A DNA stretch of 64,000 nt from Callorhinchus milii (Eukaryota), in the NCBI RefSeq assembly GCF_018977255.1, contig NW_024704742.1, forward strand, positions 13,580,001 to 13,644,000, given 5' to 3'. Positions 15,356-62,587 of this stretch are shown here, piece after piece. A program made the position numbers and the translations under genes. How positions within the stretch are numbered: the first letter of the stretch is position 1; each line of letters starts with the position of its first letter. Under the pieces are notes generated by a model, which did not search any database, was not told the DNA's origin, and saw only the letters and a program-made list of their open reading frames with translations.

Positions 15356-15708
15356 TAATAATAATAATCTTTTCATTTGATATAGTGCCTTGTCACATAT
15401 TCAAGATGTCTCAAAGCGCTTCACAGAATATACTGTAAAGTGAATTGACTATGTTTTTTGTGGTCAAAACATGGCAGCCAATTTCGCACAGCAGTGTCCC
15501 ACGAATAGTCATGAATTGAGTATTGTTATTTTTTTTTGAAGCAATTATTACCCCCGGAAAAGCGATCGGCTAATCGACTAACTTACTGTTGGATAAACAA
15601 AAGCATGTGGAGTAAGGAAACTTGCCTAAGGTTTAGCCCTGCTGGGAATCAAACCCAGGTCTCTCGCTTGCGAGGTGAGTGCTCTAACCACTGAGCTACA
15701 GGACTCCA
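15356..15708 (-). mobile_element. tRNA-derived SINE (long variant)
   Basis: Full tRNA-like head, body and (ATT)n tail, homologous to the other copies. Confidence 0.9.
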
Positions 15709-19779: not shown

Positions 19780-22700
19780 CAACAACAACAACAACAACAA
19801 GATTCCATTTATAGAGCGCCTTTCACGTCAGGAGGACGTCCCAAGGCGCTGCACAGTTGGGTCATGACCCGAGCAGGGGGGAAATGGTCAGGGTGAGGGG
19901 AGGGAAGGGAGGGAGAGAGGAGGGGGAAATGGTCAGGGTGAGGGGAGGGAAGGGAGGGAGCGAGGAGGAGGAAGAGAGTCGAGAGGGGAGCTGAAGGCAC
20001 GGTCAAAGAGAAAGGTTTTGAGACCGGCCTTGAAGGAGGAAAGGGAGGAAGCAAGGCGAAGGCACTGGGGGATGGAGTTCCAGAGCCTCGGGGCTGAGAG
20101 GCTGAAGGCCCGACCACCGATAGTAGGGCGGTTGGGGCGGGGGACGTGGAGCAGACCGGAGCCAGAGGAACGGAGGGTACGGGCAGGTAGGTAGGGGGAT
20201 AGTAGGTTGGAGAGGTAGGAGGGAGCAAGGCCGTGAATGGCCTTGTAGGTGAGGATGAGGATCTTGAAATCAATCCTCTGGGGGATGGGGAGCCAGTGGA
20301 GGCGAGCGAGGGTGGGAGTGATGTGGTCCCGAAGCCTGGTGCGGGACAGTACACGAGCTGCAGAGTTCTGAATGACCTGCAGCTTGTGGAGGGAGGTGGC
20401 GGGAAGGCCGGCGAGGAGAGAGTTCCCATAGTCCAGCCTTGAGGTGACAAAGGCGTGAACCAGGGTTTCAGCAGCGTGAGGGGTGAGGTAGTGCCGTAAT
20501 CTGGCGATATTCCGGAGGTGATGGAAGGCGGTGCCAGTTGTGGTGCGGATGTGAGGGAGAAAGGACAGCTCAGGGTCGAACAAAACGCCGAGGTTCCTGA
20601 CTGGCTTTGAGAGGTGGAGAGTGCAGCCTTGGATGCTGATGGTGTCAGCGCCTGAGGTGCGGAGGCGCTGACGTGAGCCAATCAGGAGGGCCTCGGTTTT
20701 TCGCACGTTGAGCTGAAGAAAGTTGTCTCTCGTCCAGGACTCGATGTCGGACAGGCAGGCTGTCAGGACATCGGTGGTCGTGGAGTTGAGAGTAGAGGAG
20801 GAAAGGTAGAGTTGGGTGTCATCCGCATACATGTGGAAGTTAACCCCATGTTTGCGGATGATGTCACCAAGGGGGAGCATATAGAGGGTGAAGAGGAGGG
20901 GACCGAGGACAGAGCCCTGAGGGACACCACATGAGACAGTACGGGGGGTGGAGGAGAAGCCATTCGTTGAGACGAAGTGAAGACGGTGAGAAAGGTACGA
21001 CCTAAACCATTCAAGGACAGTGCCTTGAAAGTTGAGGTGGGAGGACAAGCGGTGGAGTAGGATAGCGTGGTCGACCGTATCGAATGCTGCCGATAGGTCG
21101 AGGAGGACGAGGAGACAGAGGGAGCCCTGGTCACAGATGGTCAGGATATCATTGGTGACCTTGACCAGGGCAGTTTCTGTGCTATGAGCAGCACGGAAAC
21201 CTGACTGAAGGGGTTCAAAAAGAGAATGGGTGGAGAGGAAAGAGCGCAGTTGGGAGGCGACAACTCTTTCCAAGACCTTGGAGAGAAAGGGGAGGTTGGA
21301 GATGGGCCGGTAGCTTGATAGCTGCGACGCATCAAGGGAGGGTTTTTTCAGGGTGGGCGTGATGATGGCAGTTTTTAATGGAATGGGGACAGAGCCAGAG
21401 GAGAGGGACAGGTTTATGATGTCAGTGATATGTGGGGCAAGAAAATGGAGCTGGGAGATAAGGAGTGGAGTGGGGATGGGGTCAAGGGAGCAGGTGGTTG
21501 GTTTTAGGGATAGGATGAGTTCAGTGACAGAGGGTGGGGAAACGGGTACGAAGGTGTGTAGGGGAGGATGGGTAGGAGTCGGAGTGTGGGAGGGAAGGGG
21601 TGGGTGGTGGGTGGAAGTTGGAGGGGAAGTGACCGCGGAGCGGATTCCCTTGATCTTGGATTCAAGGAAATCCAGCATCTCCTCGCAGTGAAGGTTGGAG
21701 GAGATGACCTGCGCGGGGTGGCGGGGGGGACGGAGGAGTCGGGATGTGGTGGAAAACAGTAGCCTGGGGTTGTTCTTCGCCTCCAGGATTATCCTGGAGT
21801 AGAAGGACGACTTGGCCGAGGCTAGAGTGGAGCGGTAAATTTTGAGGAGGTCCAGCCAGATTTGTCGGTGGACCGTTAAGCCGGATTTGACAAAGGTGCG
21901 CTCAGCAGCCCGCACCTGGCATTTCAGTGAGCGGAGGTGGGTGGTGTACCAGGGGGAGGAGCGGGAGTAGGAGACAGTGCGGGAAGTGATGGGGGCAAGA
22001 GTATCGAGTGTGGAGGAGAGGATATTGTGGAGGAGGGAGAGAGGAGAAGAGGGGTCGGTGAGGGTTGAAGGCCAGAGGGAGAGGAGTTCAGAGGACTCCA
22101 AGGCATCGGTTAGGGATTGTGGGGGTAACTTCTTCCAAGGGCGGTAGAAGATGGTGGTGGGTCTGGTGGAGGTGGGGAGGGGGGTGGAGGTGGTGAAGGA
22201 GATGAAGTAGTGGTCGGAGATGGCCTTGTCGGTAATAGTGACATCCGAGACACTGAGGCCCCGGGTGATCACCAAATCGAGTGGGTGGCCGTGACTGTGA
22301 GTGGGGGAGTTTATGTGTAGGGAAAGGTTGAGTGAGGAGAGCAGGGAAGAGAAGTCTGTGGAGATGGAGCAGGAGGGGGTGAAGTGTAGGTTAAAGTCGC
22401 CCAGGATGATGAGGCGATCGGAGCAGAGGCAAAGAGATGTGAGGAGTGTTGAAATGTCAGAGATGAAGGTGGGAGAGGTTTTAGGGGGCCGGTAGAGGAG
22501 GAGGATTTTAAGGGAGAGGAATGAGGGGTGGGAGAGGGTGAGGTGCTCGAAGGAGGGGAAAGAGCCAGTGGAGTAGGGGGATAGGGCAAGTGGTGTCCTT
22601 GAGATAAGGGCAACACCACCGCCACGGCGGTTGGGGCGGGGGATGTGGTGGGAGGTGTAGCCGGGTGGCGTGGCCTCCGTGAGGGGGAAGGTGTCGCCTG

Positions 22701-23180
22701 GGGTGAGCCACGTTTCTGTCAAGGCCATGATATCAACGTTCTCATCAAGGATGAGATCGTTGATGACCAGGGCCTTGTTGGAGAGGGAGCGGACATTTTG
22801 CAGTCCGATGTGGAGGGAGCGGTTGACAGAAGGGTGTGTGGGAGGGGAGGGGGGTCCAGGTTGTGAGGCAGGGGTGGGGGAGATGGGGATGAGGGAGGAG
22901 AGGTTGACTCCCCGGGTCTGTGTCCGGGGTGGCTGGCGAGAGTGGTGGGGAATGGGGCAGTCGGTGTGGCTGCTGCTGGACAGCCAACGCCGAGTGCCAC
23001 GGTGAGCCCGGCGGAGGATTCCCAGACTGGAACAGAGGGAGGTTGTGGGAGGGTCAAGTGGGGATAGAAGACGAGAGGGACGGAGAGAGAGGAGGAGAGA
23101 GCGGGAGAGATGCAGAGGGGGGAGGGTTTGGGGGGAGAGAGGAGGGGGGAGGGAGGGAGGGGGTGAGGGGGCTCGGGTCA
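19780..23180 (-). mobile_element. Young L2 LINE copy with no ORF1 visible (probably 5'-truncated), 3' stem-loop and (GTT)n tail
   Basis: Contains the ORF above. 3' end on the minus strand reads agcgccttgggacgtcctcctgacgtgaaaggcgct...aaatggaatc(ttg)n. Possible TSD aagta at 19775-19779 and 23181-23185. Confidence 0.95.
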
Positions 23181-23181
23181 A
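19933..23181 (-). CDS. L2-clade LINE ORF2: apurinic endonuclease + reverse transcriptase, uninterrupted 1082-codon frame (true start not seen)
   Basis: APE motifs [53 protein letters not shown] motifs [62 protein letters not shown]2-type C-terminus [10 protein letters not shown]...LHWLPI...[10 protein letters not shown]. The TTG 'start' lies at the insertion junction. Confidence 0.96.
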
Positions 23182-24127
23182 AGTAAAAAGCTCTTCTCAT
23201 ACGACTGTGTGTATTCGTAAGAACCATCTAACATGAATTGAAACCTGGAATCTGCGATCTTCTCAATTCTAGAAATCCTATCAATCTTGAGCTGCTCTAT
23301 TTAAATAAATAATACAGTAAAAATAGGAACTCAGTCTCCCCTGATGGCTTAGCAGGAAAACACCACCCAGTGCAATTTGGTACTTATATCCTTCAGTTCA
23401 GTGATCACAGTTTAAATTAAATAGCTGAATTACATCTTCATTATTCATGCCTGTCAGCACTTTAAGGATCCAAACCCCTCTCAATCATTTTTCCTCTGAT
23501 ATTGATGCTGAGTCTAATAACTTAATCTGACTCACAAGGTCCCAGTAATCCACTGATCCCTGTCTTAATACTGTATAATGTTTGTACCATACTGTAATAC
23601 TGTAAACTGTATTTCTAGTTCCATTTTCACAGTGGAAATTGGACTTTGCTTCCTAGTTTTATTGAATCGATGGTTGTGGGTTAATACATGATACACTGTG
23701 ATCCAGGCTATGTGTAGCGGTTTGATTTCTTGGCCTCAGTCTGTGTCTAGGTAGTTGTATGGTCAGATGGAGATCATGATGGAGGAGACATTGGATGCTC
23801 TAGCTTTATATTATCTGAATGCTAATTCCACATTGAATTCAGAGACTATCTGAAGAGAAATTGACAGCAGCTGAAGGAACAAAAGGTGGACAGTACAGGT
23901 AAGGACTGAAAGACAGAGATCAAGCAAAGGGGAATTTGTGAGAACAGTACTGAAGACAAATAATGAGCAAGCAAATGGGAGGACCAGATGGAGAGGCAGT
24001 GAGAGCAGGAGAGAGATTGAGAAGCAGATGGCAAGAACAGACATCGATAAACAACACAGTTAGGGAGAGAGTGAGCAACAAGGAAGCATGCATGCACATT
24101 GTAGAATGCTCTTGCTGCAAGAAAAAT

Positions 24128-26338: not shown

Positions 26339-26647
26339 GTGGAGTCCTGTAACTCAGTGGTTAGAGCACTCGCTTTGCAAGCGAGAGACCTGAGTTCAAT
26401 TCCAGGCAGGGCGAAACCCTGGGCAAGTTTCCTTACTCCACACTTATAATAATAATCCTCCAAAAAAACCAAAAACAATAATAAATTGGTCATTTTCAAT
26501 CTACGACTGTTTGTGGGACAGTGCTGTGCGCAATTGGCTGCCGCGTTCGCCCACAAATATACAGTCAATTCACTTTACAGTGTGTTCTGTGAAGCACTTT
26601 GGGACGTCCTCCCAACGTGAAAAGCGCTATATCAAATGCAAGGATTA
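26339..26647 (+). mobile_element. Young tRNA-Ala-like SINE (short variant)
   Basis: A box taactcagtgg, anticodon arm ctcgc-tttgcaa-gcgag, B box gttcaattcc. CpGs retained. Highly similar to the 37216 and 60899 copies. Confidence 0.93.
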
Positions 26648-34825: not shown

Positions 34826-35157
34826 GTGGAGTCCTGTAGCTCAGTGATTAGAGCACTCGCCTCGCAAGCGAGAGACCTGGGTTTGATTCCCGGCAGGAGA
34901 AAATCTTGGGTAAGTTTCCTTACTCCACACGCCTGATAATAATCCCTCAAGAAAAAAATATAATAATAAATTGGTCACTTCAATTCATGACTGTTTGTGG
35001 GACACTGCTGTGCGCAATTGGCTGCCGCTTTTCGCCAACAAAAAAAGTACAGTCAATTCACTTTACAGTATATTCTGTGAAGCACTTTGAGACGTCTAGA
35101 AGACGTGAAAAGCACTATATCAAATGGAAGGATTATTATTATTATTATTATTATTAT
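34826..35157 (+). mobile_element. Young tRNA-derived SINE (short variant)
   Basis: gtggagtcctgtagctcag head with ctcgc-ctcgcaa-gcgag arm; long (ATT)n tail. Confidence 0.93.
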
Positions 35158-37215: not shown

Positions 37216-37542
37216 ATAATAATAATAATAATAATCCTTGCATTTGATATAGCACTTTTCACGTCGGGAGGACGTCCCAAAGCGCTTCACAGAACACACT
37301 GTAAAGTGAATTGACTGTATATTTGTGGGCAAACGCGGCAGCCAATTGCGCACAGCAATGTCCCACAAACAGTCGTAGATTGAAAATGACCAATTTATTA
37401 TTTTTTTTTTGGTTTTGGAGGGATTATTATCAAGTGTGTGGAGTAAGGAAACTTGCCCAAGGTTTCGCCCTCTGCCTGGAATTGAACTCAGGTCTCTCAC
37501 TTGCAAAGCGAGTGCTCTAACCACTGAGCTACAGGACTCCAC
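37216..37542 (-). mobile_element. Young tRNA-Ala-like SINE (short variant), with an extra tail-only copy at about 37138-37215
   Basis: Near-identical to 60899-61216; the 3' stem-loop and tail are duplicated in tandem. Confidence 0.93.
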
Positions 37543-58000: not shown

Positions 58001-60429
58001 AAAATTAATCCAATAACCAATGTGGTTGATAGGTAAAGAACCCAGAGAACAGTTTTTTTTAAAAAAAGTTTTTACTTGAAAGATAAAGAAAATCTCAATC
58101 TTGTATTTGTTGAACCAATGAAAATCTGTGAGAAACAAGGGTATTAGTATGCTCAACAAAAATTTACACTGATACAGAATCTTTCAAATTGGGCGAATGT
58201 CTCAAAAGCTCTTTACAAAGTTTGATGTTCTCGCAGTAACTCACAAGTAAAAAGGTCGAAAAAAACATAAGAGAGACTGAGATAAATCAAGAAGCATTAG
58301 TTAGATGATGCCACGTTTAGGTTTTAAATCTCTATAAGTTGTATTAAAGAAAGGAAAGATTGAGAGAAGCTCAAGGAGTTTCTTAGTGTTGAGGTCCTGG
58401 GAAAGAACAAGCTGTTAACCTGATTTACCATTATAACTGACAGCACAACGTTGAAATTCTGGTACAAAACTGTAAAAAAGCTAATGCCAGTTGGGGGAAG
58501 GGGTCTTTGCACTAGTTCATTTGCATTCTGATATTCCAGGAAAAGCACACATATTTCCTAGAACCATCAGCAAAGGAGAAGTGGCACAGTCATTTACAGC
58601 ACAGCACGCAAGGGGTCATCTGACAGGATAGTTAGGCGACTTGACAAGGCTGTGGCACCAAGCAACTATGTAAGGGGGAAAAAGCTTTCGAAGGCTAGAG
58701 TTCAGAATTATCGACATTGCGGATTATGCCGTTATGCGGAACTCGCATTTTATTAGATCATGTGAATGTGCTGTTCTATCTGAATTCAAGCTCGCAGGCC
58801 ACACCAACTTATCCTGCATCTTGCGTCACCAAATCCCATGGCCCCTGTCAATCTGTTGAACAGTAACTCTGAACAGTAGACAAAACTCCAAAAGCATTAT
58901 ACACTTTCACGGGATCAATAAAGCATTATTACATTGCAGGCCATCTGAGAGGAACTTCTAATCTCAGAACAGAATGGACATTTCCATTAGTGAAAACAAC
59001 AGAAAGGAAAAACAATAGCAGATTGATAGAACTTGCACACAAAAATATCATTTAACATATATAATAAAACTTTTCCTCTCAGGAAGATCTAAAATGTAGA
59101 TTAGGCTAATAACATATGAACTAACCATCGCCAGTTGAAGGCAGGTATCCTCAATTATGTAAGTATCCAATGAAAAGGATTACCTAAATCACCTGAATAA
59201 TAATAATAATCCTTGTATTTACAGAATGGTTAGTCTATGAGCTATTGGACCACTGTGCATGTTGGATCCCATTGTCTTGACTTGGGAAAATCTGTACTCT
59301 TCCAAACATGTTACGATCTTACAGTCTTTTTCCAAATTTCCTGGCTTTCAGGTTTCCTCTCAAATTATTCTGCCTATTTGCCTGCCTGTTCAGTGGACAC
59401 TAAAGATCCTGCGATACTATCTGAAAAATGTTGGGAGATTCCCTGATTCTCTCCAGAACCAGGTCATCAATTCTCCAGTTAAATTTGATTAGTAACTTCA
59501 TGGAGAATTGGCTGTCGTATTTGCTCAAAAAAATATTGTCACTACCCTTTACATTAAATCTTGTGAAATATTTTGAAGCATTTCGCTGACTTGATAAGGT
59601 GATATATCAAATGCAAACATTATTATTTATTGTATTCTATTTTGCTGTAGGTGATGATGCAGCTTTTGGTTCTTCCATCAATTCATTGAATCTGTTCTTT
59701 CTCCCAATGTATTCCTTCTCCACATCAAAGATTTCCTCAACATAGCATTCAACCCTATTCATGCTTTTTCTATTGATTGCTTTTTGCATTCATCAACTTT
59801 AATCCTTTTATATTTGTTTATATGATCTTTCGATGTCACTGTTGATTACCTTAATCTTGGCTCATGTGTTTGCCCATTATGAGCTGATAATTTTGTTTGT
59901 TTGTTATTGTTCCAGGAAAGTCATCTGTATCCAGTGTAACGTGGATGTATTTGATATTTATTTTACATGCAACCTTGTCCTGGCTTCCCATCTCACCGCT
60001 CCCCATACATCAAAACCATTTGCTCTGCATTTCAAAAAAATCACCCAAAATAAAAAGTTAAAAAAATCTCAAGCAAGACCTATGTTCAGAATACATCACA
60101 TCCTGTCAATTTATTTAAAGGGAAACTTTCTGTGGCATCATACCCCGACACTACCCTGCGTGAGGGGGGTGGGGCTATATAACTGTTTTGTTTATATGTG
60201 GGACTCTCAGTCTGCTTTGGACATTGTTAAAAATGGCTGTAGGTTTTCATGTGAGTCAGATATCTGACTTATCAAAAATAAATCCTGATTCTTCGCATTT
60301 GAATAAAGGGAGCCCAGACACCCAAACACATTGTTTTATATATATATTCTGATACCATCTGTCATCATTCTGATACCATCCTGCTACTTTAACAGTCTGT
60401 AAGATGCTTTGGACATATGTTATATAATA

Positions 60430-61309
60430 CTAGCTGAACCCGTTGCAGCTTCGCTTGCAACCAAAGGATCCAATATAGAATGTAGATTGACATACAGACA
60501 GACACACAGAGAGACATTTTGTCTTTATATTCAGCTGGGAGGAACTCCTTTGGGAGGACTCCCATCAAAGCTACGCTAACCAGCAGGTCTTCGAATTATT
60601 GCAAGGCTTTGGAGTAGATGAACATTTGCAGTTTTTCCTGCTTCGGGCATGATGTACAGGTTTTGAGATGAATCCACACGTGAGCATCCAACATAGAATT
60701 GTCCATGGTAAAAGGTGTATTCAGGGTGTATTCAAGAAAAGGCCAACAACCTTTAAGCTCTGCCCCTGGGCCTTGTTAACTGACATGGCAAAGCACATTT
60801 GAATAGGGAATTTGGAGCCTTTGGAACTCAAATAGGCAGTCATTGTCCCCTTTGAACTGACCAGTCAGAATAGTTGCTTCTATAACACATGACCCCTATA
60901 ATAATAATAATAATCCTTGCATTTGATATAGCGCTTTTCACGTCAAGAGGACGTCCCAAAGCGCTTCACAGAACACACTGTAAAGTGAATTGACTGTATA
61001 TTTGTGGGCGAACGCGGCAGCCAATTGCGCACAGCAATGTCCCACAAACAGTCGTAGATTGAAAATGACCAATTTATTATTGTTTTTGGAGGGATTATTA
61101 TTAGGCTCTGTGTGGAGTAAGGAAACTTGCCCAAGGTTTCGCCCTCTGCCTGGAATTGAACTCAGGTCTCTCACTTGCAAAGCGAGTGCTCTAACCACTG
61201 AGCTACAGGACTCCACCCCTAGTTGAGAGAACTCCTGTTGGGAGGACTGTAGCTCCCGTGACAACCCAAAAGACTGCCATACATTTGTTGCAGAATATAT
61301 TAGTATAGA
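60430..61309 (-). mobile_element. Non-autonomous Helitron with intact termini and a PIF1-type helicase remnant
   Basis: Minus strand: a|TCTATACTAATATATT ... hairpin gttgcaagc-gaa-gctgcaac ... gggttcagCTAG|t. Internal translation VIEATILTGQFKG..FEFQRLQ.FPIQMCFAMSVNKAQGQSLKVVGLFLNTP..HGQFYVGCSRVDSSQNLYI...KTANV.YSKALQ*. Confidence 0.92.
60899..61216 (-). mobile_element. Young tRNA-Ala-like SINE inserted in the Helitron
   Basis: Full-length copy; TSD cccta at 60894-60898 and 61217-61221. Confidence 0.94.
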
Positions 61310-61689
61310 TGTATCTCTTTAACAGGTTGTGTGCTTTCCTATGCTGCTACTTTGTTGCAGAATACCATTCATACCTCATGTTTTGGGGCTCAATTAAAAC
61401 ATTTTTGAAATACAGCTCATCAATGATCGGAGGTCCCTGAAAAAAAAAGGGCCCATGACACTCTTGCAATCAAGACCTTTCCGATAAGGTATAAATCATG
61501 TCTCTATTCACCTATTTACTTGCAGATGTTCATGCACTGGTTGTCTGGTCACATTCTACAAAGAGCTTGGTCTGCAAAGATTAGAAAAAGAAGGCTTCAT
61601 AAGCATCAAGGGCCACTGCTTTACATTCATGATAATTATGAAAAAGAATCATCCATAAATAGTGTATAAGTTTAGAACATTGCAAGTTG

Positions 61690-62587
61690 ATCAGGCTCCG
61701 CTGATTCCCCATCACCAAATTGACCGATTTCAAGATCCTCACACTTGTGTTCAAATGCCTTCACTCTCTGGCAGCTCCCTACTGCTCCAACATCCTCACT
61801 CCCTAATCCACTCCGCTCGACAGGCACCGGCCTCCTACTTGTCCCTCGCACCCTCCACTCATAAGACCATAAGACATAGCAGCAGGAGTAGACCATTCAG
61901 CCCCTCAAGCCTGCCCCGCTATTTAATAAGATCATAGCTGATCTTCTAATCTAATTCCATTTACCCGCCCTATCTCTATATCCCTTAATCCCTCTATCCT
62001 TTAGAAATCTGTCAACCTCAGTCTTGAATATGTTCAAGAACTGAGCATCTACAGCCTTCTGGGGTAGAGAATTCCACAAATTCACTACCCTCAGTGAAGA
62101 AATGTTTCCTCAACTCAGTTTGAAAAGACTGACCCTTAATCATGAGACTATGACTCCTAGTTTTAGATTCTCTAACCAGGGGAAACAGTCTCACAGCATC
62201 TATACCCTGTCAAGACTCTTAAGAATCTTATAGGTTTCTATAAAATGACCTCTATTTCTTCTATATTCTAGAGAATATAGGCCTAGCTTACTTAACCTCG
62301 TAGGTTAACCACCTCATCTCAGGAACCAACCGAGTGAATCTGTGTTGCACCCCACCATCAGATGTCACGGTTTCAGCCACTATGCCCCAAAACTCTGGAA
62401 CACTCTCCCTCAATCCCTCTGCCTTGCTCCCTCCCCTTTTTCAAGTCCCACCTGAAAACCTTCCTCTTCGACGGTGCTTATGGACACCTCCCCCTCCACC
62501 CCTGGCTTGGAGTCAGGCTCCACCACTGCTAAGCACTCTGAGATGCTACCCCATGTGGAGGGTGCTAAATAGGTGCAAGTTGTTGTT
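61690..62587 (+). mobile_element. L2 3' fragment (+) interrupted by a CR1 3' fragment (-, about 61860-62352)
   Basis: L2 sequence ...ttcaagatcctcacacttg...caccctccact resumes as accatcagatgtcacggtttcagccac... after the CR1 segment, which begins cataagaccataagacatag. Confidence 0.85.

Follow-up and report, generated by a model that had tools for sequence, protein, structure and literature searches.

The analysed stretch comprises 880 letters (60430–61309) of the window, as we call the whole 64,000-nt stretch of DNA under study, and the element in it is read on the minus strand. In this direction, it begins with a non-coding segment (61222–61309) that starts with a TC motif and, as judged from depth and bridging contigs, lies inside a longer repeat. 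Then follow a tRNA-Ala-headed SINE with an (ATT)n tail (60899–61216, minus strand), the disrupted C-terminus of a Helitron Rep-Hel helicase (60596–60892, minus strand), which is spread over several frames with its stop 166 bp from the 3′ end, and a 3′ UTR with a hairpin-like stretch at 60533–60563 (minus strand). The last feature is a high-copy terminal module (60430–60531, minus strand) composed of a short GTCT-type microsatellite, a core, a subterminal hairpin (60442–60461), and a CTAG terminus (60430–60433) next to a T. An earlier note on this DNA took the whole for a complete Helitron with both termini, split by a young SINE. The motifs behind that description are all present in the sequence, namely A|TC at 61310|61309, the hairpin at 60442–60461, and the CTAG ending at 60430 with a T after it. 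The junctions at 61310|61309 and 60430 show no TSD, and removal of the SINE with one TSD copy indeed leaves 880 − 323 = 557 bp.

An index search with 60430–60898 retrieved 21 sequencing runs sharing words with this part of the element. The word share was 50–75% in four runs of organism B and 4–6% in runs of organisms A, C, D, and E. Four of the 21 runs, X10 (organism B), X1 (A), X7 (D), and X8 (E), were aligned to 60050–61700 at 80% likeness; the other 17 (X2–X6, X9, and X11–X21) stand outside this contig alignment, and small or zero word shares among them were given no weight. Depth is given as the sum over contigs and should not be read as a copy number. The SINE dominates the alignment, and the records listed amount to 40 of 722 variant rows, 15 of 3,357 joints, 24 of 3,589 loose ends, and 32 of 335,637 pieces, totals that themselves leave some records uncounted. 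Two X10 contigs match the window without difference, one of them, contig 9, crossing the 60430 junction with 0 differences. The locus is therefore real, and organism B is either the window's own species or very close to it. The same SINE abounds in all four runs, which indicates that organisms A, B, D, and E are related. Self-BLAST of the window gave SINE copies only and revealed no second Helitron copy in it.

The SINE is flanked by a TSD of 5–6 bp, TAGGG(G), at 61221–61216 and 60898–60893, and loose ends of its family gather at 60898 and 61216. It differs from its closest sibling in the window, at 37.2–37.5 kb, by 7 mismatches in 309 aligned bases (2.3%). This low divergence and the TSD on both sides agree with the proposal that a younger SINE sits inside the element; the insertion is young, and much younger than the helicase paralogues described below. 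Its target, 60893–60898, lies within a few bases of the start of the helicase homology, so that the insertion coincides with an apparent deletion junction. All five ARAGORN calls of tRNA-Ala (15634–15705, 26344–26413, 34830–34901, 37467–37537, and 61141–61211) correspond to SINE heads. The four other heads are 2–17% different from the 61-kb copy; they are of differing ages and are not tRNA genes.

The helicase remnant, of superfamily 1, represents the last 90 or so codons of a Rep-Hel protein and ends with a stop at 60598–60596. It contains three frameshifts, near 60814, at 60714–60721 (an 8-bp local duplication), and near 60620, and about 11 codons are missing near 60845 in comparison with related proteins. 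A 30-residue single-frame piece retrieved 117 proteins at E values of up to 0.001 among 1.84 billion representatives. In tblastn back to the window, all 117 matched the remnant; the match covered two or more frames for 86 of them and three frames for 13. The best sum E value, 2e-16, was obtained for P0078 with three collinear frames, which confirms the frameshifted helicase motifs previously described for this region; the match is far beyond chance. When five frame pieces were aligned, each separately, with 228 proteins, the best six were 64–68% identical over 87 residues. These six include a hagfish protein and two full Rep-Hel proteins, P0137 and P0163, which carry PF14214 plus PF05970, are 67% identical over 87 residues, and have the same C-terminal stop as the remnant. 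Collinearity over the five frame pieces and the same stop were also found for P0216, P0142 (Myxine glutinosa), and P0174 (Rotaria sp.). Word-index protein searches with single frame pieces yielded 1 and 9 candidates, none of them scoring, which is weak evidence. No ORF carrying HUH Rep and helicase domains is left intact, and no Rep-Hel match occurs elsewhere in the window.

The sole Pfam match of the raw pieces, a weak one to a generic helicase C-terminal domain (E 0.016), would also suit a piece of a cellular PIF1 gene whose termini arose by chance. The decision between Rep-Hel and cellular PIF1 was based on ranking in PDB. A 47-aa frame piece had an E value of 1e-3 with Helraiser and of 0.13 with human PIF1; a second frame piece had no PDB match. 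For P0078, the respective values were 6e-70 for Helraiser and 3e-16 for the best PIF1 structure, and those for P0137 were 6e-263 and 3e-22; P0115 too ranked Helraiser far above PIF1 structures. Because Helraiser is placed above PIF1 for both the remnant and its relatives, and since full Rep-Hel proteins with PF14214 are among the nearest matches, the remnant is identified by sequence comparison as a fragment of a Helitron Rep-Hel and not of cellular PIF1. The many dispersed paralogues and the transposon-type 3′ edge described below speak against a PIF1 gene fragment as well, and we regard this origin as exceedingly improbable.

Fourteen of the 32 pieces listed (of 335,637) are helicase paralogues, which differ from the window by 9–15% (mean, 12%). 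All 14 are 6–19 letters shorter than the window over 60596–60892; these lengths are consistent with the 8-bp duplication being private to the window copy. Eight of the nine majority differences listed for the coding part alter a residue in the window copy, as expected of unselected decay.

The subterminal hairpin at the 3′ end has a 6-bp stem, a 1-nt bulge, a 2-bp stem, and a 3-nt loop, and it ends 12 nt before the terminus. Its folding energy of −5.7 kcal/mol (z −1.8) was equalled by 12 of 200 shuffles, and a perfect stem of at least 6 bp at similar spacing accompanies 24 of the 480 CTRR-T sites of the window. Unaided, the combination of hairpin and CTRR is thus poor evidence for a 3′ end. 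In all four runs, however, the depth at 60437 is 102- to 604-fold that of the flank bin 60330–60385, and a partial depth bin places the edge within about 4 bp of 60430. Given this sharp edge, the 3′ end is accepted: 60430 is a genuine family boundary with a hairpin-CTAG terminus. The terminal module occurs at many loci, its inner limit near 60531 being estimated from depth bins. One majority variant at 60437 was present in at least 124, 109, 95, and 70 contigs of the four runs, the counting being capped at 128.

Within the module, depth over 60465–60515 rises to 71,000 in X10, roughly eightfold the value at the hairpin end. The microsatellite-plus-core is common to more loci than the 3′ terminus, and the microsatellite may inflate the depth. 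On the other side of the terminus, the left flank contains a separate low-copy repeat at 60106–60273, with a depth of about 140–540 in X1 and X7 and 47–172 in X10, compared with 1–85 beside it. The similarity of this flank to the repeat upstream of the element is due to chance (135 and 158 of 500 shuffles).

An alternative is a composite locus. A Rep-Hel 3′ fragment whose own older end lies at 60533–60563 would have gained, through end bypass or nesting, the 3′ end of a small high-copy Helitron that extends from 60430 to about 60531. The putative older end is a second hairpin-like stretch of −7.9 kcal/mol (z −2.5; 4 of 200 shuffles), and depth falls from thousands to about 130–370 between 60511 and 60554. 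Four long paralogue pieces among those listed end at 60583–60586, though contigs go on. Moreover, 60533–60560 is a degenerate direct repeat of 61221–61248 (28 bp; score 34, matched by 1 of 500 shuffles), which places copies on both sides of the helicase remnant, and both end bypass and compound Helitrons are documented in parts of PMC4778049, PMC4224331, and PMC2997563. Cover nevertheless persists between the two putative ends: the implied depth at 60554–60582 is about 108, 244, 371, and 10, as against 160, 148, 363, and 28 at 60610. A surplus of short derivatives with one 3′ end is also normal for a single family. In a nested variant, the TC at 61309 would be the 5′ end of the short element and the insert would be bounded by AATATA; this requires an edge at 61309, where depth is level. 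We consider a composite origin of either kind unlikely.

Part of the 28-bp repeat, 61233–61245, has about 10 letters in common with a tandem-SINE spacer of X10 (depth about 1070), the top one among the rows listed (12 of 800). Also, the SINE head has an inverted match of 13/15 in the upstream segment, which is marginal (9 of 500 shuffles).

At the opposite side of the element, the junction A|TC at 61310|61309 and the A/T-rich run after the TC resemble what we take to be the appearance of Helitron 5′ ends. Together with CTAG|T at 60430, they would fit a complete internal-deletion Helitron of 557 bp, extending from TC at 61309 to CTAG at 60430, with an A|T insertion site next to a repeat of no relation to it. 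The contig alignment revealed a mid-copy dispersed repeat at 61248–61506 that is continuous over 61309. The ratio of depth at 61272 to that at 61323 was 0.98, 1.13, 0.59, and 0.94 in the four runs. Two of the 32 pieces listed (of 335,637) bridge 61309, neither with a large indel, and none among these 32 ends there. X10 record 16 spans 61269–61506 with 40 differences and 5 gap letters, 41 letters lying inside 61309 and 197 outside; it is a paralogue, since it comes from the window's own species and yet is 17% different. X7 record 24, which could be an orthologue, spans 61248–61412 with 30 differences and 0 gaps, 62 and 103 letters lying on either side of 61309. Furthermore, a repeat split by the element would resume past 60429, whereas the repeat outside 61309 does not do so and flank depth there is only 1–85. 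It follows that the element did not split the upstream repeat.

The complete 557-bp form is therefore improbable. The TC at 61309 is internal and not supported as a 5′ terminus, being either a vestigial inner end or a chance motif. Of the two termini claimed in the earlier note, the 3′ CTAG stands, with its 102- to 604-fold edge, but the 5′ TC is not confirmed; other copies do not end at this position, as follows from the level depth in all four runs and the two bridging contigs. The 14-mer ATCTATACTAATAT occurs once in the window at 0–1 mismatch, that is, without a second window copy. Repeat cover continues to at least 61506 and fades between 61506 and 61561. The sole A|TC in this bin (61525–61527, minus strand; 61527|61526) can be named, as a guess only, as the outer 5′ end. 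No terminal inverted repeat was found within 60300–61450, a range that stops short of the outer end.

A stretch of about 36 bp within the upstream repeat, at about 61470–61505, has an implied depth of about 25,000 in X10, compared with about 500 beside it, and is very high in all four runs. This motif seems to be common to another abundant repeat. The upstream repeat also contains an internal duplication (21/24; score 30.5, 0 of 500 shuffles).

With 61309 removed as an edge, the relation of the upstream repeat to the Helitron has to be considered. The two could simply abut: a 5′-truncated Helitron fragment (60430 to about 60895) would have come to lie next to an unrelated repeat (61248–61506) after a local deletion, and the two would never have transposed jointly. 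The helicase homology begins within a few bases of the SINE site, and tblastn with 228 proteins gave no Rep-Hel match in 61222–61309 or the upstream repeat. Upstream paralogue contigs are 17–18% different, compared with 9–15% for helicase paralogues, and X7 record 24 ends at 61248. Evidence to the contrary comes from the 28-bp repeat, which links the upstream segment to the Helitron 3′ UTR, and from about 14 X10 contigs over 61258, a number similar to that on the helicase. None of the 32 pieces listed (of 335,637) joins the helicase remnant to 61248–61506 without the SINE. The 15 joints listed (of 3,357) are all SINE joints and include neither an empty site nor one skipping the element. In our opinion, mere abutment has some claim to attention but is not likely.

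The explanation we favour, and consider fairly probable, sees in the locus the remains of a canonical Helitron (Helitron1/HLE1) longer than 557 bp, a relic that is old, inert, and non-autonomous. It retains the hairpin plus CTAG|T end, the 3′ UTR, and the broken Rep-Hel tail, and is joined to the upstream repeat past 61309. Stated more broadly, the element is very probably an HLE1 derivative, but without a complete 557-bp form, and it is probably either longer than 557 bp or composite. Its old and decayed state follows from paralogues that are 9–15% apart, the eight residue-changing differences out of nine, and the SINE at 2.3%. The features that define HLE1, as given in parts of PMC11417382 and PMC2997563, were recovered as follows. 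A hairpin plus CTRR coincides with the family boundary at 60430 in all four runs, and Rep-Hel-type helicase sequence is present. Dispersed copies were found as well, with 4–23 contigs per run on the helicase part and at least 70 to at least 124 at 60437.

By analogy with Helraiser, as described in sections of PMC4778049, Rep-Hel supplied by an autonomous copy would have nicked at a 5′ end and unwound the strand, paused at the 60442–60461 hairpin, and cut after CTAG. The copy would then have been pasted at an A|T site without a TSD. The mobile unit would have moved in trans and would have exceeded 557 bp, its 5′ end lying outside 61506 or having been lost since. The presumed order of events is transposition, then decay, and then insertion of the SINE almost exactly at the join between upstream DNA and helicase. 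The family may have spread before or across the split of the four related organisms and may later have decayed without selection.

Helraiser/Helibat1 (PDB 7lcc; parts of PMC4778049 and PMC11417382) is similar to the relic in its hairpin about 11–12 nt from a CTAG followed by T, its Rep-Hel C-terminus, the lack of a TSD, and many short non-autonomous copies with a common 3′ end. Unlike Helraiser, the relic possesses neither a Rep domain nor an unbroken frame, depth is level across its putative 5′ TC at 61309, and the helicase belongs to a different family, with about 57% identity over 30 residues. Heli1Xen1 and Heligloria (sections of PMC12001565 and PMC2997563) are vertebrate HLE1 with few coding and many non-autonomous copies, like the family of the window. 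These two display very high identity between distant taxa, and Heli1Xen1 is recent; the window family, in contrast, is 9–15% diverged and was seen only in organisms with one common SINE.

HLE2 elements (Helentrons/Helitron2, DINE-1 type) share with the relic that they are rolling-circle elements. DINE-1 reportedly carries a GTCY microsatellite, like the one at 60490–60515 of the window. HLE2 has short terminal inverted repeats and T|T targets according to part of PMC11417382, whereas the relic ends with hairpin-CTAG|T and its protein groups with Helraiser.

The earlier note had also raised the possibility of horizontal acquisition, on the premise that Helitrons are patchily distributed in vertebrates. 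The premise is weak: Helitrons are reported from the whale shark genome (in the part of PMC8455134 concerned), and a 23-vertebrate survey names them as lost in birds (in a passage of PMC4350176). The family occurs in all four related organisms with copies that are 9–15% divergent, and the related Rep-Hel proteins, which come from aquatic invertebrates, hagfish, and metagenomes, reach 64–68% over 87 residues as the nearest of 228 proteins. The best 30 of these 228 are 56–68% identical, with no outlier. This is family-level protein likeness, as against the >80% DNA identity used for Helitron transfer in a section of PMC2997563. Horizontal transfer is thus unsupported, although an ancient transfer would be compatible with the protein matches listed, which are the top-ranking ones. 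X1 record 1 and X7 record 17 agree in the span they cover and almost entirely in their differences, a hint of a common ancestral insertion. Exact-motif scans gave 0 and 1 match in metagenome contigs, 1 in prokaryote genomes, and 0 in viral contigs; the two matches (L001 and L002) are of a 20-mer only and are attributed to chance.

A bolder scenario assigns the locus to a family of Helitron1 elements missing from the catalogues and present in each genome as hundreds of short copies or more. The common ancestor of several cartilaginous fishes would have acquired the family horizontally from an aquatic invertebrate, and the family would then have multiplied there; the locus would be a compound member with new 5′ and 3′ ends. 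We regard this scenario as doubtful. If true, it would represent the first shark Helitron burst to be described, and this in genomes regarded as poor in DNA transposons. The host may be a cartilaginous fish, to judge by a composition rich in tRNA-SINEs and LINEs, which fits PMC5381603. The cartilaginous fish lineage is described as LINE- and SINE-dominated in parts of PMC5381603 and PMC6817897. In the literature, mainly open-access texts, shark Helitrons are mentioned at superfamily level only, and no paper on a shark Helitron family was found. The main text of PMC7070016 contains none of the words Helitron, shark, Chondrichth-, or cartilaginous, and in the accessible portion of PMC10468316 Helitron appears in the reference list only. 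For the word Helitron, the whale shark supplements gave one Pfam row, an unrelated one, and no TE table.

As it is, the locus matters little, since the transposon class of which it is a decayed copy has been well studied. Its value is modest and lies in providing a seed for curating a Helitron family seemingly abundant, if the host is a cartilaginous fish, in a LINE/SINE-dominated lineage. Insertions in common between genomes could be used as phylogenetic markers. The locus also illustrates that a convincing TC motif need not mark an element end.

Elsewhere in the window, a stop-free LINE ORF of 1087 aa with endonuclease and reverse transcriptase domains is located at 19933–23196 on the minus strand. 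This LINE, presumably of an L2-like clade, is a young and possibly intact copy.
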